Made by a program: the position numbers and the translations under genes. Shown here in pieces: positions 45,970-64,000 of a stretch of DNA of 64,000 nucleotides. Position 1 is the stretch's first letter, and each line of letters begins with the position of its first letter. Where the stretch lies: positions 120,070 to 184,069 of the forward strand of contig JALVQA010000004.1 in NCBI GenBank assembly GCA_027031495.1, read 5' to 3'. The notes beneath the pieces were generated by a model. That model made no database searches and was not told the origin of the DNA. It saw only the letters and a program-made list of their open reading frames with translations. This DNA is from Candidatus Moraniibacteriota bacterium (GTDB taxonomy: Bacteria; Patescibacteriota; Minisyncoccia; Moranbacterales; GCA-2747515).

Positions 45970-45976
45970 ATCAAAT

Positions 45977-46648
45977 ATGCTTTTTATTGTTGCCACACCA
46001 ATTGGGAATTTGGAAGATATCACGTACCGTGCAGTGCGCGTTTTGCGGGAGGCGGACGTGGTGCTGTGTGAGGATACGCGCGTGACACGGAAGCTCCTTG
46101 CGCATTACGACATCACCACGCCAACGCGCGCCGTGCACCAGCATACGCGTGACGCAATACTTGTACAGATTGTAGAAGAGTTGCGCGCCGGAGTAAATAT
46201 GGCGCTGGTGACCGATGCTGGCACGCCGGGACTCTCGGACCCGGGTAATCAGCTGGTCGCCGCAGCTGTCGCCGCCGGCGTGACGGTCACACCGGTGCCG
46301 GGTCCGTCGGCGCTTGCAGCGGCGGTCAGCGTTGCCGGTGTGGATTTGCAGCGCTTCGCCTTTTTCGCATATCCGCCGCACAAGAAGGGGCGGCAGACAT
46401 TCTTCCGCCGTGTGGCACATTTCGTGACAGAAGAGCGACTGCCGGTGATCTATTACGACAGCGTGCACCGCGTGGCGAAAAACCTCGCACTTCTTGCTGA
46501 CACAGCACCGGATGCCCACGTCATTGTCGCACGCGAACTAACCAAACTGCACGAAGAAATCCTCCGTGGCACCGCCGCCGACCTCGCCGCACACTTCACT
46601 GCACACCCCGATACTCTCCGCGGGGAGTTTGTCGTTGTGGTGTATTAA
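45977..46648 (+). CDS. rsmI: 16S rRNA (cytidine1402-2'-O)-methyltransferase RsmI (tetrapyrrole-methylase fold)
   Basis: MLFIVATPIGNLEDITYRAVRVLREADVVLCEDTR…GTPGLSDPG. About 60% GC, well above the local background. Confidence 0.85.
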   Translation: MLFIVATPIGNLEDITYRAVRVLREADVVLCEDTRVTRKLLAHYDITTPTRAVHQHTRDAILVQIVEELRAGVNMALVTDAGTPGLSDPGNQLVAAAVAAGVTVTPVPGPSALAAAVSVAGVDLQRFAFFAYPPHKKGRQTFFRRVAHFVTEERLPVIYYDSVHRVAKNLALLADTAPDAHVIVARELTKLHEEILRGTAADLAAHFTAHPDTLRGEFVVVVY

Positions 46649-48852: not shown

Positions 48853-50310
48853 ATGCCACAGAAAGAACCATTCTATATCACAACCACACTGCCGTACGTG
48901 AACGCTGCGCCGCATGTTGGATTTGCAAGTGAGATTATCTTTGCTGATGTGCGTGCACGCTGGGAACGGCAGCAGGGCAAAGATGTCGTGTTCAATACCG
49001 GCACGGACGAGCACGGGGCGAAAATTTATGAGAAGGCGCGCGAGGCCGGCGAGGATCCGCAGGCATATGTGGACCGTTTTGCGACACATTTTCGTGAACT
49101 GGAAAGTGTGTTAAATGTTTCACCGACGCACTTTATTCGCACAACGGATGCGCACCATATCGCGGCGGCGCAGGAGCTCTGGCGGCGCGTGGACGCCAAC
49201 GGCTACATTTACAAGAAGACCTACCACACGAAGTACTGTGTGGGCTGTGAGATGGAGAAGACGGACAGTGAGTTGGTGGATGGTCGGTGTCCGCTGCACC
49301 CAAATCGCGCGTTGGAAGAAGGGGAGGAGGAGAATTACTTTTTCCGTTTCAGTGCATTTCAAGAACCGCTTTTGGCACTGTATAAAAAGTACGAGGACTT
49401 TGTCGTGCCGGCGAAGCGCTTCAATGAAATCAAGAGTTTCGTTGCAAGCGGTTTGCAGGACTTCAGCATTTCGCGCCTTGCGGCCAAAATGCCGTGGGGT
49501 GTGAGTGTGCCGGGCGATGAGAGCCATGTGATGTACGTGTGGTTTGATGCGCTGACAAACTATATCTCTACACTTGGTTGGCCGGAAGATGAGGAGAATT
49601 TTGTGCGGTTTTGGGGCACGCCGGATGTGCCGCGCTGTGTGCAGATTGCCGGCAAGGACAATCTCCGACAACAGGCGGCAATGTGGCAAGCAATGCTCTT
49701 GGCGGCGGACTTGCCACCGAGTCGGCAAGTATTTATCAACGGCTTCATTGGTGTGGACGGACAGAAAATGAGCAAGTCGCTGGGTAATGTGATCGCGCCG
49801 CAACAGATGGTGGACCGGTACGGCACGGATGGTACGCGATACCTTCTGTTGGCAAAAGGTGCGTTTGGTGAAGATAGTGATATTTCGTGGAAAAAAATGG
49901 ATGCGCGGTATACGGCGGAGTTGGCGAATGGACTTGGTAATTTGGTCAGTCGCGTGATTGCGCTTGCGCCGGCGGATGTAGTGGTGCCTGACTCATCTGC
50001 GCGCGTTGCACAGATGGACGGTGTACTTGCGCCACTGGTGAAGAGCATGGCGATGCGTGATGCACTGGCACATGTGTGGACGATTGTTGATGATGCAAAC
50101 AAATACCTGGAGAAACAGCAACCGTGGGCACTACGCACGACGGACGAGGCGGCGTTCCGCGCGGTGATGGAGAAGTTGCTCGGAGATGTGGCACTGTTGG
50201 GTGCTGTGTTGCAACCATTTTTGCCGGCAACGGCGCAGCGCATTGCGGATGCGCTGGCGACACGCAAGCGTCCGATACTCTTTGCGCGGTTGGAAACACA
50301 TAACAAGTAG
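48853..50310 (+). CDS. metG: Methionine--tRNA ligase (short form, no C-terminal dimerisation domain)
   Basis: HIGH-like region LPYVNAAPHVGFASE, KMSKS as KMSKSLGNVI, and a Zn-knuckle CVGCE…CPLH. About 57% GC. Confidence 0.9.
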   Translation: MPQKEPFYITTTLPYVNAAPHVGFASEIIFADVRARWERQQGKDVVFNTGTDEHGAKIYEKAREAGEDPQAYVDRFATHFRELESVLNVSPTHFIRTTDAHHIAAAQELWRRVDANGYIYKKTYHTKYCVGCEMEKTDSELVDGRCPLHPNRALEEGEEENYFFRFSAFQEPLLALYKKYEDFVVPAKRFNEIKSFVASGLQDFSISRLAAKMPWGVSVPGDESHVMYVWFDALTNYISTLGWPEDEENFVRFWGTPDVPRCVQIAGKDNLRQQAAMWQAMLLAADLPPSRQVFINGFIGVDGQKMSKSLGNVIAPQQMVDRYGTDGTRYLLLAKGAFGEDSDISWKKMDARYTAELANGLGNLVSRVIALAPADVVVPDSSARVAQMDGVLAPLVKSMAMRDALAHVWTIVDDANKYLEKQQPWALRTTDEAAFRAVMEKLLGDVALLGAVLQPFLPATAQRIADALATRKRPILFARLETHNK

Positions 50311-50321
50311 GTGAATATTAA

Positions 50322-51740
50322 ATGTTTGAAACATTTCAACGTCCTGAAAAGGTACAAAAAAAGACGCAAATAAGTGAATTGTTTTCTCCGACAGCAAAAG
50401 TTGGCGATATTCCTTTTTATGAATATATATCAGAGCGTCTTGCAGAGCACGGCGTTGTTGATAGAGATGGTGTGAAAATCAATGCGCATAATCCTTTTAG
50501 AGGGACGTTGGCGGACTATCTTTCGCTTGCTGATTATAATAATATATCGCGCTATACATTGTTAAGACAAGTTGTAGAAGTATTGGACTCTTCTCGCGAT
50601 GTTGAGGTTTTCTTGCCGCTTTCTTATATCAGTATCATGAATTTGGCAGGCATTGATCTGAGTGATCCTGATTTAATCAAGAAATACAATGAATTTTACA
50701 GTCAGTTAGACGATGATGAAAAGAAGTTCTTCAAACAGAGAGATGAAATTGTTGTTTTGCGGCAGTCGCCTGATGCAAAAAAGCAATCCGTTGTGGAGGC
50801 GGTTTCTAATGCTTTAGATGCCTTGCGAGAAGAACAGATTGGAGAAAAGGGGCTTGGCATTAAACAGGCATTAGCTTTTCTTGATAAAAACAGCGGAGAG
50901 ATCAGAGTAACATCTGCAACACGTGATGGTCAGGTAAATGTATTAAACGTAAAACTTGGCGCTGATGGAAAATATTATGAGCATGTGAAAAGGTGTGATG
51001 TTGATGGTGATGCTCCACCACTTTCCGGGACGGAAGTGGTTATTATACCGAGTGAGAAAATGAGCGAGGAAAGGGTGCGAGAAATTATAGAAACAATTAA
51101 ATATAAATTCCGCTTAACGCTGGATGCAAGTATATATGTAAACAATGTGTTGATAAATGGATACACGCGCGTGACGAAGGCGTCCGGTGAAGAGGTTAAA
51201 AGAAAACAGACAGATGCACGTGTAGATGTCTCTGTTTCCAGTGACAAAATCGTTGTGAGAGATAATGGGCGTGGAATGTCGGCTAGTATTCTTTCCAGGA
51301 TGTTTATACCGCGATCTGGCACAAAAAAGATGCGTGTCAAGCAACACGCCGACACACATGACAACAAACCCCTTACGGAGACATATTTTATAGAAGAGAG
51401 TGACGCGCAAGCGCAGAGTTTTAATATTGCACGGCGAGCGGAGGTGCTGGAGAACTTTAGGCTGGCTGCGTGTAAAAAATTAAACCTTGCACCAACATCA
51501 ATTCTCATAGATGCACATGCCGTGCGTGTGCCGGAAGCACGGCAGTCAATATTTGTAGATGAAAAATTTTTTGGGGCGCTAGAGAGTGCCGTAGATGAGA
51601 TTATAGAAGGACAAAGAAGCGCAGAGGAGAAAATACAAGCTATTAATACGGTAATGGCATATCTTGAACATTTTTCTCAACAAAAGTCTCTTGATGAAAA
51701 AAACGCGGCGAAGAAAGTGCGGAATTTATTTTTAAGTTGA
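50322..51740 (+). CDS. Hypothetical protein with degenerate GHKL-ATPase-like motifs. First gene of an AT-rich island
   Basis: EAVSNALDA (N-box-like) and VVRDNGRGM (G1-like) are present but unusually far apart. About 37% GC. Confidence 0.4.
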   Translation: MFETFQRPEKVQKKTQISELFSPTAKVGDIPFYEYISERLAEHGVVDRDGVKINAHNPFRGTLADYLSLADYNNISRYTLLRQVVEVLDSSRDVEVFLPLSYISIMNLAGIDLSDPDLIKKYNEFYSQLDDDEKKFFKQRDEIVVLRQSPDAKKQSVVEAVSNALDALREEQIGEKGLGIKQALAFLDKNSGEIRVTSATRDGQVNVLNVKLGADGKYYEHVKRCDVDGDAPPLSGTEVVIIPSEKMSEERVREIIETIKYKFRLTLDASIYVNNVLINGYTRVTKASGEEVKRKQTDARVDVSVSSDKIVVRDNGRGMSASILSRMFIPRSGTKKMRVKQHADTHDNKPLTETYFIEESDAQAQSFNIARRAEVLENFRLAACKKLNLAPTSILIDAHAVRVPEARQSIFVDEKFFGALESAVDEIIEGQRSAEEKIQAINTVMAYLEHFSQQKSLDEKNAAKKVRNLFLS

Positions 51741-53044
51741 AAAAAAATATTAAAAAACGTGTGGAAAATCTCGTTAGAGAGCTTTCTTTGAAGTACAATC
51801 TTGTGCCGAATGATGAAGTCTTTCAAAGACTTGTTTCAGAAACAGAAAAAACGTTTTATGTCGATCATAGTCTTTTTGATTTTGAGCCGCTTAGCATTAA
51901 AGGCGCACAGAGAGTGCCTTATTTTAAGAGGGGCAATGTGATTGCTCTTCCTGCTCCTGCAACAAATTCTGACTTTACCGTTGTAAGGTACGATGATACT
52001 TTTTACGTAAATGAAAAAATATTAAAGAAATATAAGGAAAGTAATGGAACGATTAATGCTGCAATTATCGCAGAGTTACTTGAGTTGTCTGTTAATCCTA
52101 TAAAAACAAATTATGACAATCATGCAGATAGTTTCGGTATTGATAATCCTTTCGTGGATGGCGTGAGTGATGTACATAAAAAAGACAGAAGAGTTGAGGA
52201 AGAATATGCGCAACAATTTCTTAGTCCGTTTGTGAAAGAGAAAGAAGGATATTTTTCCGGTTTAACACAATATGTGGAAAGTATCGGTCGTTTCTACTTG
52301 CGATTCTATTTCAAAGATGGTGCATCTGTTATTGATCTGTATGACGCTGACATGCATACTGTTCTATCATATACAGGACGATTTTCCGATATCTATGATG
52401 ATGTCGTATTTGATGATGGAAGTGGCTATATTTCATATGATAATGGTGTTATCTTCTTTGATAAAAGTGGTGCAATGGTTCATGTAGAACACTTTGATGA
52501 TCGCGCGTCAAGAAGTGTTGTAAAGAAGAAAGACGGGGGTTATGTGCTCTATGATGATAAAACGCCATATATCTACGTACTTGATCGTAATTTCACTTTG
52601 CAGGAGAAAGTTAATGTTCCCGCGCCTACCAAAATCGTTACACTTGATAACGGCACTTTTCTCTTTTTAAATTCAAGGACCGGTACGTCAAAAATAGTTG
52701 ACAGCATGTATCAAGAAATTGGTGATGCGGAGTGCGCAAGTAAATACGATGCGGTAGATTTTGGCGAGCGGTATATTGCTCTTTATGATGATGGCGACGA
52801 CAAATTGACATTCATAGACAGAAATAATGGGTCCCTTGTATTTACATTCAATTTAAGTGATGATGAGTTGACGAGAAAAGTTTATGCTGTTTTGCCGCGA
52901 AAGGATGGTATTTATGTTGTGATGGATGTGAACAAAGGTAAGCAGTATTTAGGAAAACATGCAGGTGTTATAAAAGAAGATAATTATCGTTCATTTGCCA
53001 ATATTAATCTCTCTATTGAGGGAACGTTCTTTTATACAGACTAA
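51737..53044 (+). CDS. Fragment 1/3 of a large (~1370 aa) protein: N-terminal repeat (beta-propeller-like) region. TTG start overlaps the upstream stop
   Basis: Repeated D-G-x-Y/YVLYDD/IYVVMD-type strands. It joins the next ORF if one T is removed from the T4 tract at 53030-53033. Confidence 0.5.
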   Translation: MKKNIKKRVENLVRELSLKYNLVPNDEVFQRLVSETEKTFYVDHSLFDFEPLSIKGAQRVPYFKRGNVIALPAPATNSDFTVVRYDDTFYVNEKILKKYKESNGTINAAIIAELLELSVNPIKTNYDNHADSFGIDNPFVDGVSDVHKKDRRVEEEYAQQFLSPFVKEKEGYFSGLTQYVESIGRFYLRFYFKDGASVIDLYDADMHTVLSYTGRFSDIYDDVVFDDGSGYISYDNGVIFFDKSGAMVHVEHFDDRASRSVVKKKDGGYVLYDDKTPYIYVLDRNFTLQEKVNVPAPTKIVTLDNGTFLFLNSRTGTSKIVDSMYQEIGDAECASKYDAVDFGERYIALYDDGDDKLTFIDRNNGSLVFTFNLSDDELTRKVYAVLPRKDGIYVVMDVNKGKQYLGKHAGVIKEDNYRSFANINLSIEGTFFYTD

Positions 53045-54314
53045 AGATGGCAAATATTTTCTTGTGACTGATTACAGAAATAAATTTCAAGTATATTCTA
53101 AAGAATTTGAGCTTATTTTCAGTAAGGAGGCAGATATTGATGATGTGGTAATGAGTAGCGATGGGAATATAGTTGCATTATTGAACGATGAATCTTATGA
53201 AACGTACGTCCCTTATAGCTATTCTGATGAAATGAGAGGGCGTGTGGAGGTTCTTGATATAGAAGGTGCCACAAGAACTTTGAGTGAACGTTTTGCATTT
53301 TTTGAGTATAGTCATTTACAGTCGCATATACAAAAAATACTTGCTGATATTGATAAAGGTGGTGCCGGTGCGACATTTGAATATGCTGATGTCTTTCCTT
53401 TTAGCGAGGACGATATACGGTCCTTGACTAGAGAGGTTGGCGCGATTGAGGCATTTGCAGAGGCAGTGGGGTATGATGCATCGCACTTTTCAAAAAATGT
53501 ATATGACATGTTTCTTGGTGAGAGTGGAAAGAGAGTGAAAGAATTCGTAAAAAGCAGTGGCGAGAAATTTATCGCAGAGATAACTGTTTACGCAAAGAAC
53601 TTTAAGTATGGATTGGACACGATGAATGTTGTCAATACTATTCTTTCACGGGTAGCTTTTGAGAGCGAATCTGAAAAACTTTTTGCGTATGAGATCTATG
53701 ACGCGTATCTTGGCAATGTTTCACGAGATGCTGATGCTGTGACAGTTTTACTTAAAAAGATAGAACAAATAGTGCGTGCGGGATTATTCAGTGATTTGCG
53801 CAGTGCGCTGGATGCGGAATTTGATGGTGAGCGCTCTTTGATGTATTTAGGCAGAGAAAAACCTGCCGGCATGCCGGCAAAAGCGTTTTTGGAGTTTTTG
53901 GAAAGTACCGAGCTCTTAGACGTGAAAGAGTGGCGCGATTTTACACCGAATGATGCTGTAGATATTTTTGATGCCGGTGTCATAGATCCTGTTTTTCTGT
54001 ATTATTTTGGTAAAAAAGGTTTTGTCACTGACGAACAGCTAAATAGCGCGTTTAATAATTTTGTTGCACAGGGTAAAACTTTGCATCAAGCTACAATAGA
54101 GCTTTTGGAAGAGCAGATTGTAAAGGAGGTGAAGGGGCAGAGTGCAGAGAAGGGTGTTTTCGTGCGCGAACTCTTACAGAATATGATTGATGCCTCAAAA
54201 AACAACATCGTCTTATCAATGCGGGCAAGAGGAAAGAATATGGCGATCCGTCAAAAATTGAGATTATGTGCTACCAAGAATACAATGACAAAGATGAGAG
54301 CATGTATTTTGTGA
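52995..54314 (+). CDS. Fragment 2/3: central region ending in the GHKL N-box (FVRELLQNMIDAS)
   Basis: The ATP-lid N-box ExxxNxxDA sits at the extreme C-terminus, then the frame is lost at the A6 tract at 54197-54202. Confidence 0.5.
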   Translation: MPILISLLRERSFIQTKDGKYFLVTDYRNKFQVYSKEFELIFSKEADIDDVVMSSDGNIVALLNDESYETYVPYSYSDEMRGRVEVLDIEGATRTLSERFAFFEYSHLQSHIQKILADIDKGGAGATFEYADVFPFSEDDIRSLTREVGAIEAFAEAVGYDASHFSKNVYDMFLGESGKRVKEFVKSSGEKFIAEITVYAKNFKYGLDTMNVVNTILSRVAFESESEKLFAYEIYDAYLGNVSRDADAVTVLLKKIEQIVRAGLFSDLRSALDAEFDGERSLMYLGREKPAGMPAKAFLEFLESTELLDVKEWRDFTPNDAVDIFDAGVIDPVFLYYFGKKGFVTDEQLNSAFNNFVAQGKTLHQATIELLEEQIVKEVKGQSAEKGVFVRELLQNMIDASKNNIVLSMRARGKNMAIRQKLRLCATKNTMTKMRACIL

Positions 54315-55846
54315 GAAAATTTAAGGACAATGGTTCCGGCATTCCGAGTCTTGTAAATCTTTTGGTTGCGCAGATAAACGAAAAAGATGGCGTTGTGGAC
54401 ACCGGCTTTTTTGGGAGCGGTTTTCTTTCCGTCTTTGAGGAATCTGATATTGTAAATATAAAAACGTCTGATGGAAGCGGCGTGACAAAATATCTTGAAA
54501 TGAGTGTTCGGCGAGATAAAAGTGGTGACTTTCTCGGTTTTGATATACAGGGCTACAGGCAGACAGAGGAACTTTTTTCCGGCACTGAAATTGAGAGCAA
54601 AACAAAAGTGGGGCGCAATAAAATTGCAGAGTTTGAATATGCTATTACAAAATCAGCTATCTTGAAAAATGTTGCCAATTTGCAGTCGTTTCTTGATGAC
54701 GGCACGGAAATAAAAATCTACTTTAATAGTGAAAAACTAGAAAAGGGGACGCAGACACGGCGGGTGGAAACTTTCTCTGTAGATAGTGATACATTCACTC
54801 TAAAAATTGAAGAGGGGGCATTTTCACAAGTATCATCAGGTGAAGGGTTACGTATGAGTGATCTAGATGAAAAATATCTTGCTCTCGTACCGCGTCAAAT
54901 ACGCTCTTTAGTGCATGAAAAAAATCTTTCTCTCATTATTGATGGCAAAATTCCTCTTATAAAAGATAGAAGCATGATTGCAGACGAGCCAAAGTATCTG
55001 CCCGCTATTCAAAAAGCTGTTGCGCAGGGCGTTATAAAAATCGCGATCAAAGAGTTGTTGGAAAACCGGCGTAAATTTGAGGGATGGCCGGATGACTATC
55101 TTGTAAACTACAATTATCACATGTCCTATAATTCCGCAGAGGGTAAGAGAATTATTGAAATTGCACGTAAAATCAATGCCGGTATGGAGTTAGGTGATGA
55201 TGATCTTAAATTTATCTCTGTTGATGGTGTTGATAAGGATTCTATTTTTGCGCGCTTGGCAGTGCTTATCAATGTAGAAATAGAGCGCGAAGATGGTAAG
55301 CGCGAGACAACGTCACTTGCAGCTAAGAGGCTTCTTGGGTTTCGTAATGTTGCACGTGATGACAACATGGAACATATTAGAAAGGTAATACAGAGAGAAA
55401 AAGATATTTTGCATGCTGCAGAAACGTACATGCCAGACAAGGATATTGTACCAAGTTCAATAGATGTCTCAAGGAGAAAAATCAAAGAAACGATCAAGAT
55501 GTTTGATGAAGCTGGTACATCGGTTAATATTGATAGTTTAAACGATCGCGAACGACAGGTCTTTGATGCCATCGAGGGTCTCGTGCAGAAAGTATATCCT
55601 TCAGTTATTTTGATGGTCAAAGAGATGAAGCGTAAAGCCGGGTACTCTTCCGGTGACACCATCGTTTTTGCGCGGAACACTCTCAGCAATGAACGTTATG
55701 CGACTGAGGTCTTAAATCATGAACTGGCTCACTATTTGGAGGGAACCGGTGGGCACGACAAAAATTTTACGCATCAGGTTGATGGCAGTTTTGGCGATGC
55801 ATACAGAGAAGCTAATCGTGCATTATTGAGCGTTTTTGCGACGTAG
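54266..55846 (+). CDS. Fragment 3/3: remainder of an Hsp90/MORC-like GHKL ATPase (G1 DNGSGI, G2 GFFGSGFLS) plus a C-terminal domain with an HExxH motif (NHELAHYLEG)
   Basis: G1 and G2 boxes at canonical spacing. With one extra A at 54197-54202 the N-box of the previous ORF lies 45 aa upstream of G1, the normal spacing. Confidence 0.55.
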   Translation: MCYQEYNDKDESMYFVRKFKDNGSGIPSLVNLLVAQINEKDGVVDTGFFGSGFLSVFEESDIVNIKTSDGSGVTKYLEMSVRRDKSGDFLGFDIQGYRQTEELFSGTEIESKTKVGRNKIAEFEYAITKSAILKNVANLQSFLDDGTEIKIYFNSEKLEKGTQTRRVETFSVDSDTFTLKIEEGAFSQVSSGEGLRMSDLDEKYLALVPRQIRSLVHEKNLSLIIDGKIPLIKDRSMIADEPKYLPAIQKAVAQGVIKIAIKELLENRRKFEGWPDDYLVNYNYHMSYNSAEGKRIIEIARKINAGMELGDDDLKFISVDGVDKDSIFARLAVLINVEIEREDGKRETTSLAAKRLLGFRNVARDDNMEHIRKVIQREKDILHAAETYMPDKDIVPSSIDVSRRKIKETIKMFDEAGTSVNIDSLNDRERQVFDAIEGLVQKVYPSVILMVKEMKRKAGYSSGDTIVFARNTLSNERYATEVLNHELAHYLEGTGGHDKNFTHQVDGSFGDAYREANRALLSVFAT

Positions 55847-58303: not shown

Positions 58304-58560
58304 AAGGCGTACACCCTACACATGCAGTGAGGTTTTTAATTTTAGATATGTGAACGAACAGGCCTATTCGGTAGACAGTCATTACAGACTGCCATAGTGT
58401 ATTTTAACGTTTCATGGTATACTCGTCAAATAGCGATATTTTCATATGTTTTTGCAGTGTATGTGTTATGATACATTCATAACACATACTTATAGTGGAT
58501 TACATATGTAATTGTGCATGTTTTACGTATTTTTTGGTTTAATAAATTAGATGTAGTGCT

Positions 58561-59256
58561 ATGACAAAGAAAACCTCACGATACAAACAAAAGTATGCAC
58601 GCGGGGCACATGCAATTGTTGCGGTTGATGTTGTTGTTTTTAGTGTGATTAACGAAGAATTACACGTGCTTTTGACGCAAACGAATAAGCCGGAACTAAA
58701 GGGGTTGTGGGCGGTACCGGGTGCACTGGTCGCACCGGATGAATCGCTGGAAGAGGCAGTGGAGCGTGTGCTTACAACAAAAACCGGTCTTAAGAATGTG
58801 CTGACAGAACAATTAGCGACATTTGGTGATCCTGATCGTGATCCGTTTGGGCGCGTTGTGAGTGTGGCGTATTTAGCGTTGGTGCATGCAGATAAACATG
58901 TTCTTTCCACAACACATGAATATGATGCAATTGCGTGGGTACCGGTAGATCGCCTTCCGCGCATGGCGTACGATCACAAGAAGATTGTGCGAGCAGCTGC
59001 CCAACGTTTGCGTGCGAAATTGACATATAGCACGATTGCGCGCGGCATTCTGCCAAAGGAGTTCACGTTGACGCAAATGCAAACAGTGTATGAACATATT
59101 CTCGGACATCCTTTGGACAAGCGTAATTTTCGTAAAAAAATTCTTGCATTAGGCATTATTGAGCCAACAGGGAAGTACTATAGACAGCAGCGTGCACGTC
59201 CAGCTGCTCTGTATCGTTTTCGTTCAACAAAGACGGAAATCGTGGATATTTTATGA
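58561..59256 (+). CDS. NrtR-like Nudix-fold transcriptional regulator (Nudix domain + C-terminal winged-helix)
   Basis: Nudix box GALVAPDESLEEAVERVLTTKTG. The C-terminal …FTLTQMQTVYEHILGHPLDKRNFRKKILALGIIEPTG…RPAALYRF matches the NrtR DNA-binding domain pattern. Confidence 0.65.
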   Translation: MTKKTSRYKQKYARGAHAIVAVDVVVFSVINEELHVLLTQTNKPELKGLWAVPGALVAPDESLEEAVERVLTTKTGLKNVLTEQLATFGDPDRDPFGRVVSVAYLALVHADKHVLSTTHEYDAIAWVPVDRLPRMAYDHKKIVRAAAQRLRAKLTYSTIARGILPKEFTLTQMQTVYEHILGHPLDKRNFRKKILALGIIEPTGKYYRQQRARPAALYRFRSTKTEIVDIL

Positions 59257-59364: not shown

Positions 59365-59466
59365 TTGACAAAATTTATATAGTGTATATACTACACTATA
59401 TAACACACAATATGTTAGAGAATATCATTATTTTTTCTCCTAACTAAGTGTGTTATATACACTAAG
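59365..59466 (+). promoter_or_regulatory. Promoter (TTGACA-16 nt-TATACT) overlapped by two palindromic operator-like sites sharing AGTGT-N7-ACACT
   Basis: Site 1 at 59376-59402 is TATATAGTGTA-tatac-TACACTATATA. Site 2 at 59444-59466 is CTAAGTGT-gttatat-ACACTAAG. Both lie upstream of the isochorismatase-family gene. Confidence 0.45.
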
Positions 59467-59608
59467 TTATTCTTTCACACGGGGTTACTCATCTAGGAGT
59501 AATTGTGACAATCGCTCGTATTGTCCGCAGGAAACTGTGCTGTGTAAGAGGAATATACAGTGTAGTGTGCATATAAGAAATGCGCACATAGTTCGTTAAC
59601 AGTAAACT

Positions 59609-60445
59609 TTGGAGGTAAAAACGATGGCACAACGTGTTCATTTGGTTGTTATCGATCCACAGAACGACTTCATGGATCAGCCCGACGCGGCATTGCCTGT
59701 TGCTGGCGCGACTGCTGACATGCAGCGCCTTGCGGCGATGCTCTCGCGCATTGGGCACAAGTTGGATGATGTGCATGTTACGCTGGATTCGCACCATGCG
59801 ATTGACGTAGCGCATCCCGGCTTCTGGCGTGATGCTAATGGCCAACATCCGGATCCGTTTACCATCATCACGCCTGATGATGTGGAGAATGGTGTCTGGG
59901 TACCGCGAGACGCGGCTTTGCGGGATCGCATGCTTTGTTATGCCGAAGCGCTTGCCGCTGATGGCAAGTACCCACTCATGATCTGGCGGGAACACTGCCT
60001 GATTGGGACACCGGGGCATAACGTCCAGGCGGACCTCATGGCGACGCTGCTGGATTGGGGACGCAAGAATTTTGCCAATGTGGACTTCGTGACCAAGGGG
60101 GCAAACCCGTTCACGGAGCACTACGGCGCATTGATGGCGGAGGTGCCGGACCCCAACGATCCGTCTACCGGCCTGAACGCGGCGTTCCTGCAAATGCTCG
60201 CCGAAGCGGACATTGTGGCAGTCGCCGGTGAGGCTCTCTCGCACTGTGTTAAGGCGACCGTTGATCAGATTGCCGAGCATATCGGCGCGGAGCATATCAA
60301 GAAGTTCCATATTCTGACCGACTGTGCGTCGCCGGTGGCACAGGTGGGCGATGGGCCGGATTTTCCGGCAATTGCTGAGGCGTGGCTTTCCGACATGGAA
60401 GCGGCCGGGATGGTACTGACTACGTCGGAAGCGTTTCTGGCATAG
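59609..60445 (+). CDS. Isochorismatase-family cysteine hydrolase (nicotinamidase/PncA-like)
   Basis: HLVVIDPQNDF N-terminal motif (catalytic Asp) and catalytic Cys in GEALSHCV. Good RBS ggaggtaaaaacg. About 60% GC. Confidence 0.75.
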   Translation: MEVKTMAQRVHLVVIDPQNDFMDQPDAALPVAGATADMQRLAAMLSRIGHKLDDVHVTLDSHHAIDVAHPGFWRDANGQHPDPFTIITPDDVENGVWVPRDAALRDRMLCYAEALAADGKYPLMIWREHCLIGTPGHNVQADLMATLLDWGRKNFANVDFVTKGANPFTEHYGALMAEVPDPNDPSTGLNAAFLQMLAEADIVAVAGEALSHCVKATVDQIAEHIGAEHIKKFHILTDCASPVAQVGDGPDFPAIAEAWLSDMEAAGMVLTTSEAFLA

Positions 60446-60512
60446 ACGCTGTTGTTCTTAACTGGCGCCACGCATATGGTGTGGCGCCCAACCAAACCTA
60501 TGGAGGTGTATC

Positions 60513-61268
60513 ATGCCAAAGTTACTCAAAGATGACACTGTGCTGGAGCAGCGCAGTTTAGATGGTGGCGCGTTTACATTTCGCGCAGCACGGATTGACA
60601 AGCTCGGAGCAACCGAGTACACGCTGGTGACCATTGCTGTTGATGTTACCGGCAGTACATACGCGTTCTCCGACCAACTGCGTGATGCGCTGGTGAATGC
60701 CGTGGCAGCATGTCAGCGCTCGCCGTTTGTGGATCGCTTGCTGCTGCGTGTGGTAACGTTCTCTACGGCAGCAGGTGGTGTGCAGGAACTCCACGGCTTT
60801 GCCCCACTTGCGGATGTGGACGTTGCCGGATATCCGGTGTTTGAGCCGGATGGTCTGACGCCACTGTACGACGCGGTCTATGCATCGGTTGGCGCCATGG
60901 AACAGTATGCGGAGGATCTCTACAATGAGGATTACCTGAGCAATGGTATCGTCATTGTCATTACCGACGGTCTTGATAACGTCTCGCAGGTGACGCCGGC
61001 GATGATCAAGGAGAAGATTGGTAATATCCGACGCAAGGAGCGCATGGAGTCGCTCGTGACAATCCTGGTGGGCATCAACGCTGAAGAGTACCGTGGTGAA
61101 CTGGAGGCATTTCGGCGCAACGTGGGAATTGATTACTACGTTGATGCCGGTGCGGCCAGTGATGCGACGCTCGCGCGGCTGGCGCAATTCGTCAGTCAAA
61201 GTGTTGTGGCACAATCGCAGGCGCTTGGCAGCGGTGGACCGAGTCAGGCAATTTCCGCCACAATCTAA
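60513..61268 (+). CDS. von Willebrand factor A domain protein, TerY-like
   Basis: MIDAS residues are present: DVTGST (DxSxS-like), the Thr in GLTPLYDAV, and the DG in VITDGLDN. The size (251 aa) is typical of TerY. Confidence 0.7.
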   Translation: MPKLLKDDTVLEQRSLDGGAFTFRAARIDKLGATEYTLVTIAVDVTGSTYAFSDQLRDALVNAVAACQRSPFVDRLLLRVVTFSTAAGGVQELHGFAPLADVDVAGYPVFEPDGLTPLYDAVYASVGAMEQYAEDLYNEDYLSNGIVIVITDGLDNVSQVTPAMIKEKIGNIRRKERMESLVTILVGINAEEYRGELEAFRRNVGIDYYVDAGAASDATLARLAQFVSQSVVAQSQALGSGGPSQAISATI

Positions 61269-61441
61269 AGTGGCATAACCACGGGGTGGCAATCAATATA
61301 TTGTCACCCCTTTATTTTTTGTTGAGGACGGCGAAATGTGTTACATAAAAAACTTGCATTATGTCATAAATTATGACATAATTGCGTCGCGATAAATTTT
61401 TTATGGCATTGTTTTTTCACAACAAAAAGAGGAGGTCAATT

Positions 61442-62299
61442 ATGACATATTCCACAGATACGATAACACTTGTCGGCAGTGCACATCAACGTGCATTTAC
61501 ACCGGGACAAGATGCTGCTAGTGCCGGTGTAGTATCTGGTAAAGCTGGTGGCGCATTTGCCATCGTGTCGGATGGGTGCTCGTCCGGCGGACGTGCAGAG
61601 ATCGGTGCGCAGCTACTAACCGCTGCAGCAGAGCGAGCTGCACGTTTAAAGATTGCCGGTGATGATATGGTGCAATCATTGTTAGTATCCGTGCTTGAGG
61701 CAACAGAGAAGGCGGCATGCGATGTGGCGCTTGCGGATGATGATCTCTTCGCAACGCTTCTGTATGCAATTGTCACGCCTGATCGCGCGTTTGTACGTGT
61801 CTATGGCGATGGTGTCGTTGCGGTCGGTTTCCGTGACGGCACGTGGCAATTTCTTCGCGTTGAGTGGGAAAAGAACACGCCGTTCTATCCTATCTACTAC
61901 ACGCGAAAGAATGTGGACACGTTTCTCACTGTACACGGTAGTGCATTACACACGGCAGTCTATGTGGAACACGTCACATACGACCCTGATGGCACCGCGT
62001 GGCGGCAGTTTTGCACGCGACATACTGTTGCAGAGGGTATGATGGGGTTGATGCTGTCGCTTGACGCTGGAGCATTGCGTGACATCTGCGCACTCGGCGT
62101 CTTTACGGATGGTGTGGCGTCACTTCCCACAGTCCCGTGGGACAACATGATGCGTGAGATTGTAGCATTCAAGAGCACCACCGGTGCGTTTCTGCGCCGG
62201 CGCGTAGGTCATGTGCTGCGTGACCTCAGCATTGCGCCGACAGATGACCTGTCCGGTGCGATGGTATGGCTTTCTTCTGATGACGGAGGTGGATCATGA
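61442..62299 (+). CDS. PP2C-family Ser/Thr protein phosphatase
   Basis: FAIVSDGCSSGG (metal-binding DG), VYGDGVV and LGVFTDGV motifs. Strong RBS agaggagg precedes ATG 61442. Confidence 0.75.
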   Translation: MTYSTDTITLVGSAHQRAFTPGQDAASAGVVSGKAGGAFAIVSDGCSSGGRAEIGAQLLTAAAERAARLKIAGDDMVQSLLVSVLEATEKAACDVALADDDLFATLLYAIVTPDRAFVRVYGDGVVAVGFRDGTWQFLRVEWEKNTPFYPIYYTRKNVDTFLTVHGSALHTAVYVEHVTYDPDGTAWRQFCTRHTVAEGMMGLMLSLDAGALRDICALGVFTDGVASLPTVPWDNMMREIVAFKSTTGAFLRRRVGHVLRDLSIAPTDDLSGAMVWLSSDDGGGS

Positions 62300-64000
62300 G
62301 ACATGTTGAGTTGGAAGGACGCGGAAGCGCGCTTCTCACGGATGAGAAGCATGTTGCCACGGGCGGTGAAGCAAGCGTGTATCGCGACGGTGACACCGCC
62401 ATCAAGGTTTATACGGACCCCGATGCCATGCGTACGCGGGTGCCTGTGGAGAAACTACGGCGCTTGATGCACCTGCGACACGATCACATTGTTGCGCCGC
62501 AGGGAATAGTGACGCACAATGGCGATCCGATAGGGTACTACATGCCCTTTATGGATGGCGCACCACTTCTGCAGGCCTTTCCGACGGCATTCTGGCAGCG
62601 CAGTGGCTTTAATATGGCACAAGCGCTGCGTATTGTTGATCAGATGCGCGATATTATGCAGTACGCGCATGACACCGGTACAGTGGTCGCTGATCCCAAT
62701 GAGATGAATTGGTTGCTTGTAGGGAAGGGTGGCGCTATGCAGGTGTATGCCATTGATGTGGATGCGTGGGGCATAGATACGTTTCCTGCTAAAGTAGTTT
62801 CGCCGAGTGTGCGTGACTATCATGCGGAAGCTTTCACGCCGGAAGCGGACTGGTTCGGGTGGGCAGTTGTAACGTTTCAATTGCTTACCGGTATCCATCC
62901 CTACAAAGGTGTACTTTCGCCGTACAAGCGACACGACCTGGAAGCACGTATGCGCGACAACGCATCAGTGTTTGCGCCCGGCGTGCGTCTGCCCTCGGCG
63001 GTGCGGCCGTTTGCGCAGATTCCGTCAGTGTTGCTTGCGTATTATCAAGTTGTCTTTCAGGATGGTTTGCGAGAGTCGCCGCCGATGATTGGTGGCACGG
63101 TGAGAACGGTCAGCATTGCTGCTTCTGTGCGCGCTGTGCCTGCAGTGGCGCGGGGTGCACTGACATGGCGTGTTGTCTATGACCAACAACCGATAGCACA
63201 CGTTTACCTCGGTGGCCTGGCGCGGACGCGTGAAGGATTGCTCGTGGATCTTGCGACGCACGATGTGCTACTGCGTGACGTGCCGGTGGATGCTGTTGTT
63301 GTGCGCCAGTCAGATAGTGTGCTCGTTGCTGTCACGGACGATGGCGCACCGGTGCTGCGTGTTATTCGTGCACACCACAAACCACAAACAGCTGTACTGC
63401 ACCTGCAAGGGGTGATGCGGTTTGTGAGTGCCGAAGGACGATTGTTTGCAGTAACGCACCGCTCACTGACGGAGGTGCAAGTGCTGCAGATGGGTCGCAC
63501 GCTCATAGCAACAGCCGGTACGGCCTGGCCAATTCTGCCACACGCATTGCAGTGGTTTGACGGCATCGGTGTGCAGGATGCATTGGGTGCGCGATGCCTC
63601 GTCGTACCGGATGCTCACGCGGGTTGCGCTATGGTGCGGGTGCCGGAACTGGATGGGGCGCGTATCGTGAGCGTCGTGCGGCGTAATCGTATCGCTGTTG
63701 TGACAACTGTTGATGATGCCGGGAACTACCGGCGGCGAGTCATCGTAATGGACAGCAAGCTGAAGGAATACACGATTGACGTTGTGGCGGATGCTGAGGA
63801 TGGCATCGTGCAGCACGTTGTGCTTCCGAAGGGTGTTGTCGCTACCATTGTGGAGGACGGTGTGCTGGACATCAGCGTGCCATCACATGGTAAACAACAG
63901 CATATTCGGGACGGCGCACTGCGCACAGACATGCAGTTGGCACACAACAACAACGATGTGTATGTCGTCACGCCGGACGGGGTGGTGCAGCACATTACCA
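62296..64000 (+). CDS. Protein-kinase-like fold protein (putative Ser/Thr kinase), 5' 568 codons. It continues beyond the window
   Basis: My own translation, since it is not in the ORF track. The ATG overlaps the PP2C stop (ATGA) and RBS GGAGG lies upstream. Gly-rich loop TGGEASVY and Lys in AIKVY. Catalytic-loop-like HDTGTVVADPNEMNWLL and DFG-like IDVDAWG. No stop before the window end. Confidence 0.6.
   Translation, partial: MRHVELEGRGSALLTDEKHVATGGEASVYRDGDTAIKVYTDPDAMRTRVPVEKLRRLMHLRHDHIVAPQGIVTHNGDPIGYYMPFMDGAPLLQAFPTAFWQRSGFNMAQALRIVDQMRDIMQYAHDTGTVVADPNEMNWLLVGKGGAMQVYAIDVDAWGIDTFPAKVVSPSVRDYHAEAFTPEADWFGWAVVTFQLLTGIHPYKGVLSPYKRHDLEARMRDNASVFAPGVRLPSAVRPFAQIPSVLLAYYQVVFQDGLRESPPMIGGTVRTVSIAASVRAVPAVARGALTWRVVYDQQPIAHVYLGGLARTREGLLVDLATHDVLLRDVPVDAVVVRQSDSVLVAVTDDGAPVLRVIRAHHKPQTAVLHLQGVMRFVSAEGRLFAVTHRSLTEVQVLQMGRTLIATAGTAWPILPHALQWFDGIGVQDALGARCLVVPDAHAGCAMVRVPELDGARIVSVVRRNRIAVVTTVDDAGNYRRRVIVMDSKLKEYTIDVVADAEDGIVQHVVLPKGVVATIVEDGVLDISVPSHGKQQHIRDGALRTDMQLAHNNNDVYVVTPDGVVQHIT

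Follow-up and report, generated by a model that had tools for sequence, protein, structure and literature searches.

We analysed a 64,000-nucleotide stretch of DNA from Candidatus Moraniibacteriota bacterium (assembly GCA_027031495.1, contig JALVQA010000004.1, positions 120,070 to 184,069), hereafter the window, at whose 3' end four consecutive genes, here called A, B, C and D, encode a nicotinamidase-like cysteine hydrolase, a von Willebrand factor A (vWA) protein, a PP2C-family phosphatase and a Hanks-type kinase. Directly upstream lies nrtR, the gene of a Nudix-related transcriptional repressor, followed by its predicted operators. These genes probably constitute one copy of a conserved, NrtR-controlled module for the salvage of nicotinamide adenine dinucleotide (NAD+). 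Well over a hundred bacterial species carry the module, as do more than 80 viral contigs, and apparently it is a widespread, undescribed and NAD+-linked system common to bacteria of the candidate phyla radiation (CPR) and large phages. The literature searched contains no description of it and no nicotinamidase linked to a vWA/PP2C/kinase set, and searches on NrtR together with Patescibacteria gave nothing relevant.

Related loci were collected by a scan of one genome per species (GTDB), which yielded 144 confirmed loci, 80 of which were fetched; the counts of genome loci given here cover these 80. In about 68 of them the genes stand in the order A-B-C-D, and all four genes occur in 65 of 80 viral contigs, hence the nicotinamidase-like 5' partner and its context, which the original prediction had regarded as new to this DNA, are not peculiar to it. 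The module occurs in many CPR classes as well as in Bradyrhizobium, Desulfobacterales, Accumulibacter, Chloroflexota and others. Gene A is the best conserved of the four (50-79% identity), followed by gene B, and about ten loci (Thiotrichales, Desulfonema) carry A-B without C-D. The conserved core is A and B rather than the vWA-PP2C-kinase triad.

The gene neighbourhood points to NAD+ metabolism. The flanking open reading frames (ORFs) were clustered and the clusters checked by Pfam. The recurrent neighbours are nrtR (35 loci), PncB (32), NadE (14), NadD (13), NAD kinase (8), canonical PncA (6), NadR (4) and PnuC (3), and at least one NAD gene stands within 8 kb in 48 loci. Typical orders are nrtR-A-B-C-D-nadD-pncB-nadK (L025) and nrtR-A-B-C-D-pncB-nadE (L008, L036). 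A TrmB-like regulator and a methyltransferase also recur. A defence setting had been proposed for the window genes, and this part of the proposal fell: the company kept by the module is pncB, nadE, nadD, nadK, pncA and pnuC-nadR, there is no defence island, and defence genes are not among the recurrent neighbours of the 80 genome loci. Six CPR loci (L014, L030, L032, L037, L048, L054) have a class I S-adenosylmethionine-dependent methyltransferase beside either nrtR or gene A. A Variovorax megaplasmid (L087) has A-B and an NrtR-like gene in divergent orientation; in their vicinity are NAD kinase and genes for ADP-ribose processing (macro-domain, Nudix and nucleoside 2-deoxyribosyltransferase-like).

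Further evidence comes from the operators. The strict motif GTGT-N7-ACAC lies upstream of gene A in 34 of 77 related loci, compared with 2.5% of control windows, and in related loci it is also found 5' of nrtR, pncB, nadD, nadE and pnuC; nrtR itself is placed at most 1 kb from gene A in 22 loci. In the window the motif has three matches along the 64 kb, and two of these are the boxes in front of gene A. Published NrtR operators follow a palindromic consensus of 21 bp, built around GT-N7-AC and overlapping the promoter, and described NrtR targets include pncA-pncB, nadD-nadE and pnuC-nadR (Rodionov et al. 2008, PMC2330246). The present loci resemble these regulons in having a Nudix-like and winged-helix regulator with GT-N7-AC palindromes over a promoter, and differ from them in the vWA-PP2C-kinase genes, which are not among the described members (PMC2330246). 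The same study reported an orphan NrtR-regulated pair, nrtX-nrtY, with the layout 'nrtR<#>nrtX-nrtY' (PMC2330246); the A-B-only loci L060, L073 and L087 resemble it in layout, and the two pairs may be equivalent.

The module is also carried by phages. By tblastn against GenBank phages, two huge-phage genomes, LR745208 and LR756511, were found to carry A and B, and C and D are close by. In IMG/VR, 88 contigs carry B; 80 were fetched, many of them longer than 100 kb, and all viral counts cover these 80, some of which may be prophages or cellular DNA called viral by mistake. A and B are together in 79 of them. PncB accompanies the module in 13-15 viral contigs and NadE in 12-18, NadD recurs also, and an NrtR-like gene and NADAR are each present in 8 (L130, for instance, is among the viral loci with genes for ADP-ribose processing). 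In some phage copies PncB-NadE sits between B and C. Additionally, a Myoviridae protein of the BFVD database aligns with gene D across its full length. Bradyrhizobium locus L052 and IMG/VR contig L090 have identical coordinates, suggesting a predicted prophage, and in the Bradyrhizobium copies (L052/L090, L042 and L062) genes C and D are about 400-640 nt apart.

The four proteins and their families

Gene A had been predicted to encode a nicotinamidase-like protein, and the comparison of profiles agrees: a profile of 26 A sequences aligned by hhalign to the canonical PncA of L044 with a probability of 98.3% (E 1.8e-14). The catalytic triad D11, K158 and C208 aligns to that of PncA and is invariant in the 26 sequences, as are the metal-site residues D55, H57, H64 and H124 and the WPEHC motif, in which 'IWPEHC' aligns to 'LWPDHC' of canonical PncA. 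The roles assigned to these residues are presumably those of their counterparts in M. tuberculosis PncA and yeast Pnc1. A search with gene A retrieved 3845 homologues, some of them called nicotinamidase/pyrazinamidase by JGI and a few with PF00857 in the precomputed tables. We predict from these residues that gene A encodes a nicotinamidase-type enzyme with a complete active site.

Gene A thus shares with PncA the Asp-Lys-Cys triad, the Asp/His/His(/His) metal site and the WPxHC motif, and its linkage to pncB recalls the classical pncA-pncB operons (PMC2330246). It differs in its length, 273 aa against about 180-210 aa, which comes with an extra insertion of about 55 residues, lying between the metal ligands, and a C-terminal extension of about 50 residues. 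Furthermore, a vWA gene always accompanies it, and in some loci a canonical PncA is present as well.

The Pfam searches that the original prediction had proposed for its four assignments gave a divided result. The only above-threshold Pfam match among A to D is PP2C_2 (PF13672, 1.4e-17) in gene C, whereas the isochorismatase, vWA and kinase models fail; these three assignments are supported by profile-profile or structure comparison. Isochorismatase (PF00857) scored 13.8 bits on gene A (cutoff 27), the kinase models 20.7 on gene D (cutoff 23.1), and gene B had no vWA or other Pfam match. NCBIfam and PHROGs searches, like Pfam, gave no name to A, B or D. The MIDAS (metal ion-dependent adhesion site), PP2C metal-binding and kinase motifs noticed earlier are all present and are invariant across homologues.

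For gene B, searches of the PDB by sequence, with the single sequence or a profile, were empty. Its AlphaFold2 model (predicted local distance difference test, 83; predicted template modelling score, 0.85) matched vWA and integrin I domains of the PDB in Foldseek with a probability of 1.0. The MIDAS residues D44, T46 and S48 (D44-x-T-x-S48), T116 and D152 are invariant across homologues. Against E. coli YegL, hhalign gave 41% (E 3e-4), so the link to the TerY/YegL subfamily is moderate. The family is large, with 528 clusters at E<=1e-30 among 1.84 billion representatives and 1671 database relatives at 52-61% identity, chiefly from Patescibacteria. Gene B ends in a conserved, Ser/Gln-rich C-terminal tail with a hydrophobic final residue (FVSQSxSSQSQALGTGGPSQ), and hhalign places its Ser-rich C-terminal helix against YegL. 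The tail is also retained by B homologues of loci and phages without the kinase and the phosphatase (L058-L083).

In gene C, the metal-binding Asp residues (D24, D44-G45, D123-G124, D223-G224, D268-D269) are invariant, and the alignment to E. coli PphC reached 92% (E 6e-7). The complete product of gene D, of 572 aa, was read on L001, a sister contig from the same genome. Its kinase domain spans residues 1-260 and is joined by a linker to an all-beta C-terminal domain (289-569). Invariant kinase residues are G23-G24-E25, K37, D133, N135, N138 and D154/D156, and E. coli YegI aligned with 96.6% (E 5e-10). Gene D encodes an active-looking Hanks kinase. Its structure was predicted with an alignment of database homologues; over residues 289-569 it shows 28 beta-strands, arranged as seven sets of four, which make up a propeller-like domain of about 280 residues. 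In this domain no Cys-rich ribbon and no Pfam family was found, and an OB (oligonucleotide/oligosaccharide-binding) fold would have about a quarter of its size.

TerY-P systems consist of a TerY-like vWA protein, a PP2C phosphatase and a kinase with a zinc ribbon, and the version proven in defence has an OB fold (PMC11090510). The assignment of B-C-D to this triad can be kept in part. Adjacent and co-directional MIDAS vWA, PP2C and Hanks kinase genes, each homologous to its E. coli counterpart in YegL-PphC-YegI, speak for it, but neither the C-terminal fusion nor the association with Ter, restriction or defence genes is found. Instead of the zinc ribbon or OB fold the kinase bears the propeller-like domain, the triad is fixed behind a nicotinamidase-like gene in the order A, then vWA-PP2C-kinase, and its context is NAD+ salvage under NrtR and not Ter, McrBC/CoCoNuT or defence islands. 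PADLOC gave no TerY-type match for B or C, but the E. coli YegL, PphC and YegI controls likewise match nothing of this type, so this negative does not weigh against TerY-P membership; gene D matched the defence models PD-T4-6 and mad6 (MADS) weakly. B-C-D is accordingly a TerY-P-like triad in the broad sense and not a member of the described systems.

Gene layout, promoter and operators

The layout described at first inspection was confirmed: the four genes are on the same strand, a GGAGG-type ribosome-binding site stands before each of them, and C overlaps D in the sequence ATGA. The distances A-B and B-C measure 67 and 173 nt. A jump in GC content had also been reported, exactly at 59609. 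The jump is real (0.555 in the cassette vs 0.437 in the remainder of the window) and GC climbs at the start of gene A, but 59609 is an in-frame TTG within the ribosome-binding site and the ATG at 59624, behind TGGAGG, is the preferred start. Similarly, the ATG of gene C is preceded by GAGGAGG, while the ORF list begins this gene at TTG 61382. The coordinates are collected in the table below.

Features of the nrtR-A-B-C-D region, in window coordinates
Feature	Position	Strand	Description
palindrome upstream of nrtR	58459-58489	.	perfect, 13+13 nt, GTATGTGTTATGA-N5-TCATAACACATAC, over a weak promoter-like site
nrtR	58561-59256	+	Nudix-like N-terminal domain and C-terminal NrtR winged helix; Nudix-related transcriptional repressor
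sigma-70-like promoter of gene A	59365-59392	+	TTGACA-16-TATACT, 11/12 matches to consensus
NrtR box 1 (predicted)	59375-59403	.	perfect palindrome TTATATAGTGTA-tatac-TACACTATATAA, core GTGT-N7-ACAC
NrtR box 2 (predicted)	59443-59467	.	ACTAAGTGTGTTATATACACTAAGT, downstream of predicted transcription start
gene A	59624-60445	+	PncA-like nicotinamidase-family cysteine hydrolase, 273 aa
gene B	60513-61268	+	TerY/YegL-like vWA protein, 251 aa
terminator-like hairpin after gene B	61283-61320	+	hairpin 61283-61310 with 11-bp stem, then T-run TTTATTTTTT
palindrome in B-C spacer	61358-61382	.	perfect, 25 nt, ATTATGTCATAAaTTATGACATAAT = ATTATGTCATAA-a-TTATGACATAAT
gene C	61442-62299	+	PP2C-family Ser/Thr phosphatase, 285 aa
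gene D	62296-64000	+	Hanks-type Ser/Thr kinase, 568 codons in window, cut by window end

An NrtR-type regulator and its operators had been proposed upstream of the block, and both the gene and the predicted operators are indeed directly upstream of gene A. The nrtR product matches the Pfam families NrtR_WHD (PF21906, 7.5e-25) and NUDIX (PF00293, 6.2e-15), and its top NCBIfam match is NF050029, 'ADPR responsive transcriptional repressor' (3e-42, under the equivalog cutoff of that model). On direct reading its Nudix box is apparently degenerate, with ERVLTTKTG in place of REx2EE. The -10 hexamer of the gene A promoter (59387-59392) is the centre of NrtR box 1. In the palindrome upstream of nrtR, the half-site TGTGTTAT is similar to box 2 and the spacing is wider; this palindrome may be an autoregulatory site of nrtR.

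The four genes had been taken as a single operon. The terminator-like hairpin and the perfect palindrome split B from C in an AT-rich spacer where GC drops to 0.35, so the genes do not necessarily form a single transcript. This palindrome has a spacing unlike that of the NrtR boxes and may be an operator for C-D. Beyond the window, L001 (4600-5552) continues from D through a terminator-like hairpin to gene E (71 aa), a membrane protein with one membrane helix, and gene F (104 aa), which matches no Pfam family. At the end of L001, about 5.5 kb downstream, the promoter of gene A and its NrtR box recur with 98% identity, hence another NrtR-controlled unit is predicted to follow beyond the window.

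Proposed mechanism and competing explanations

The NrtR repressor leaves DNA as ADP-ribose, a breakdown product of NAD+, builds up. In the mechanism that we propose, NAD+ consumption would generate ADP-ribose and lift the repression by NrtR. The gene A product would then convert nicotinamide to nicotinate, which would feed PncB, NadD and NadE in the Preiss-Handler route. Gene B would act as the obligate partner of gene A, since loci without C and D still keep the two together. The kinase D and the phosphatase C would form a reversible phosphorylation switch gating the A-B unit, and the beta domain of D would read the signal for this switch. The phosphorylation target would likely be B, with the invariant Ser-rich tail as a candidate site, or otherwise A. 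We infer this phospho-switch step, with D and C acting on B or A, only tentatively, at a confidence well below that given to the salvage module as a whole. The tail is kept in loci and phages without C and D, hence its role cannot be that of a kinase substrate alone.

In a wider form of this proposal, A-B(-C-D) would be an unrecognised, phospho-regulated branch of NAD+ salvage common to CPR bacteria and large phages and, together with PncB, NadD and NadE, a fourth reconstitution route, of Preiss-Handler type and gated by a vWA-PP2C-kinase switch; we regard this extension as possible and rather doubtful. The phage pathways NARP1 (Adps+Namat), NARP2 (Nampt+Nmnat) and NARP3 (PnuC+NadR) are likewise phage-borne NAD+ salvage sets, comparable to the phage module that travels with PncB, NadE, NadD and NADAR. 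None of them has a nicotinamidase, the deamidated route, a vWA protein, a PP2C or a kinase. NAD+ depletion and reconstitution are central to the conflict of bacteria with phages, and CPR bacteria rely on salvage. If the proposal is true, one clade of TerY-P/YegL-PphC-YegI triads would gain a concrete and testable metabolic function, the strategies of phage NAD+ reconstitution would gain a deamidated route, NAD+ salvage would be under post-translational control in ultra-small bacteria, and the orphan NrtR targets nrtX-nrtY would be identified as A-B. The parts of the module are small soluble proteins amenable to biochemistry.

Several points weigh against the assignment to NrtR-controlled NAD+ salvage. 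A vWA protein that assists a nicotinamidase would, to our knowledge, be without precedent. The presence of a canonical PncA beside the module in 6 loci means that gene A may not carry out plain nicotinamide deamidation. The GTGT-N7-ACAC box is absent from the phage copies (0 of 80 viral contigs), and about half of the bacterial loci have no NAD gene in the DNA fetched. A-B and C-D may be separate transcripts, with C-D separately regulated. Also, the genes of the loci were naive longest-ORF calls. Finally, triads of the TerY-P-like kind are reported to act against phages on their own (PMC11090510).

This last point leads to the best placed of the alternatives, in which the window genes are a stand-alone, horizontally acquired anti-phage cassette of TerY-P type whose triad senses infection and whose cysteine hydrolase is the effector. 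The effector could, for instance, destroy nicotinamide and starve phage NAD+ reconstitution, and NrtR would provide induction by ADP-ribose; NARP1 and NARP2 use nicotinamide. The homology of the triad to YegL-PphC-YegI, the defence role reported for similar modules (PMC11090510), the weak matches of gene D to PD-T4-6 and MADS kinases, the foreign third-codon-position GC content (GC3) of the window copy and the patchy, multi-phylum distribution are all in line with it. However, the recurrent neighbours belong to NAD biosynthesis and not to defence, the window flanks are housekeeping genes (methionyl-tRNA synthetase, a family 4 glycosyltransferase and DUF192), the kinase has neither of the C-terminal fusions, zinc ribbon or OB fold, described for TerY-P, and A-B occurs without the triad enzymes. 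Large phages themselves carry the module, often with PncB and NadE, which salvage fits better. We therefore consider the defence cassette unlikely.

That phages carry the genes could also mean that large phages are the home of the module, which would serve NAD+ reconstitution or counter-defence, the window copy being derived from a phage or borne by a mobile element. Here A, PncB, NadD and NadE would rebuild NAD+ from nicotinamide once the NADase immunity of the host fires, and phage NAD+ reconstitution is an established strategy. The 88 IMG/VR contigs with B, nearly all of the fetched ones with A too and many above 100 kb, the curated huge-phage genomes with all four genes, the full-length match of gene D to the Myoviridae protein and the Bradyrhizobium copies within a predicted prophage (L090 and L052, same coordinates) argue in this direction. 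Nevertheless, the window copy has no flanking phage genes, it is syntenic with its relative L002 and has a host-type NrtR operator that phage copies lack, in most lineages the GC of the CPR copies has adjusted to that of the host, and some of the IMG/VR contigs may be cellular DNA. A phage origin is, in our judgement, improbable.

Equally improbable is that gene A is not a nicotinamidase and acts on another pyridine or nucleoside-like metabolite (for example by deamidation of nicotinamide mononucleotide or nicotinamide riboside) or on a protein, the Gln-rich tail of gene B being one option, with the triad as sensor or regulator in analogy to Ter-associated TerY-P. The insertion and extension of gene A, its failure at the Pfam threshold, the canonical PncA alongside it in 6 loci and the invariant tail of gene B, rich in Ser and Gln, would agree with such a chemistry, and a 2012 study of Ter systems reportedly linked TerY-P triads to the phosphoribosyltransferase-based synthesis of a nucleoside-like metabolite. 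Against it, all the residues that define a nicotinamidase are invariant, among them those of the metal site for the pyridine nitrogen, and the commonest enzyme neighbour, PncB, is the user of the nicotinamidase product. Lastly, the idea that the four genes are universal core genes was rejected, given their patchy spread over several phyla and phages.

Origin of the window copy and other observations

The prediction of a small, CPR-like host was right, as the nearest relative of the window copy is L002, a Moraniibacteriota metagenome-assembled genome. The further claim of a horizontally acquired cassette holds in so far as its GC3 is foreign to the host: A, B, C and D have GC3 values of 0.65, 0.60, 0.49 and 0.58, against 0.41 in nrtR, which is host-typical, and about 0.30-0.46 in most other window genes. 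It does not hold as a fresh insertion, since L002 shares the order nrtR-A-B-C-D-E-F with the window genome, so that the GC shift fits an allelic replacement in a conserved locus. Across loci, cassette GC follows host GC (0.28-0.68) and exceeds it by a median of 4 points, so the module is old and ameliorated in most lineages, and the GC shift alone was rejected as proof of a mobile cassette. The window copy has an excess of 12 points, carried by GC3. L002 is GC-rich throughout (GC3 0.59-0.71), and its nucleotide identity to the window is 88.7% in A-B, 84.8% in C-D and 73.6% in nrtR. In this genome, an allele of a GC-richer, Moraniibacteriota-like relative appears to have recently taken the place of the block from A to F. 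The GC-rich block is flanked by direct repeats of the operator region, and the replacement may have occurred by recombination at these repeated promoter/operator copies.

Other parts of the window also deviate in composition from an otherwise AT-rich genome. The methionyl-tRNA synthetase gene (48853-50310) has a GC3 of 0.61, a 182-aa ORF on the minus strand (45971-46519) with no Pfam match has a GC of 0.60 and a GC3 of 0.70, and two genes at 230-2268, also on the minus strand, have GC3 values of 0.54-0.56. The genome may thus be compositionally mosaic outside the cassette too. The lowest GC of the window (0.36-0.41) is found in four consecutive plus-strand ORFs (472, 435, 439 and 526 aa) at 50322-55846. 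They belong to no Pfam family, the first having a sub-threshold match to HATPase_c, and may represent a separate uncharacterised system.

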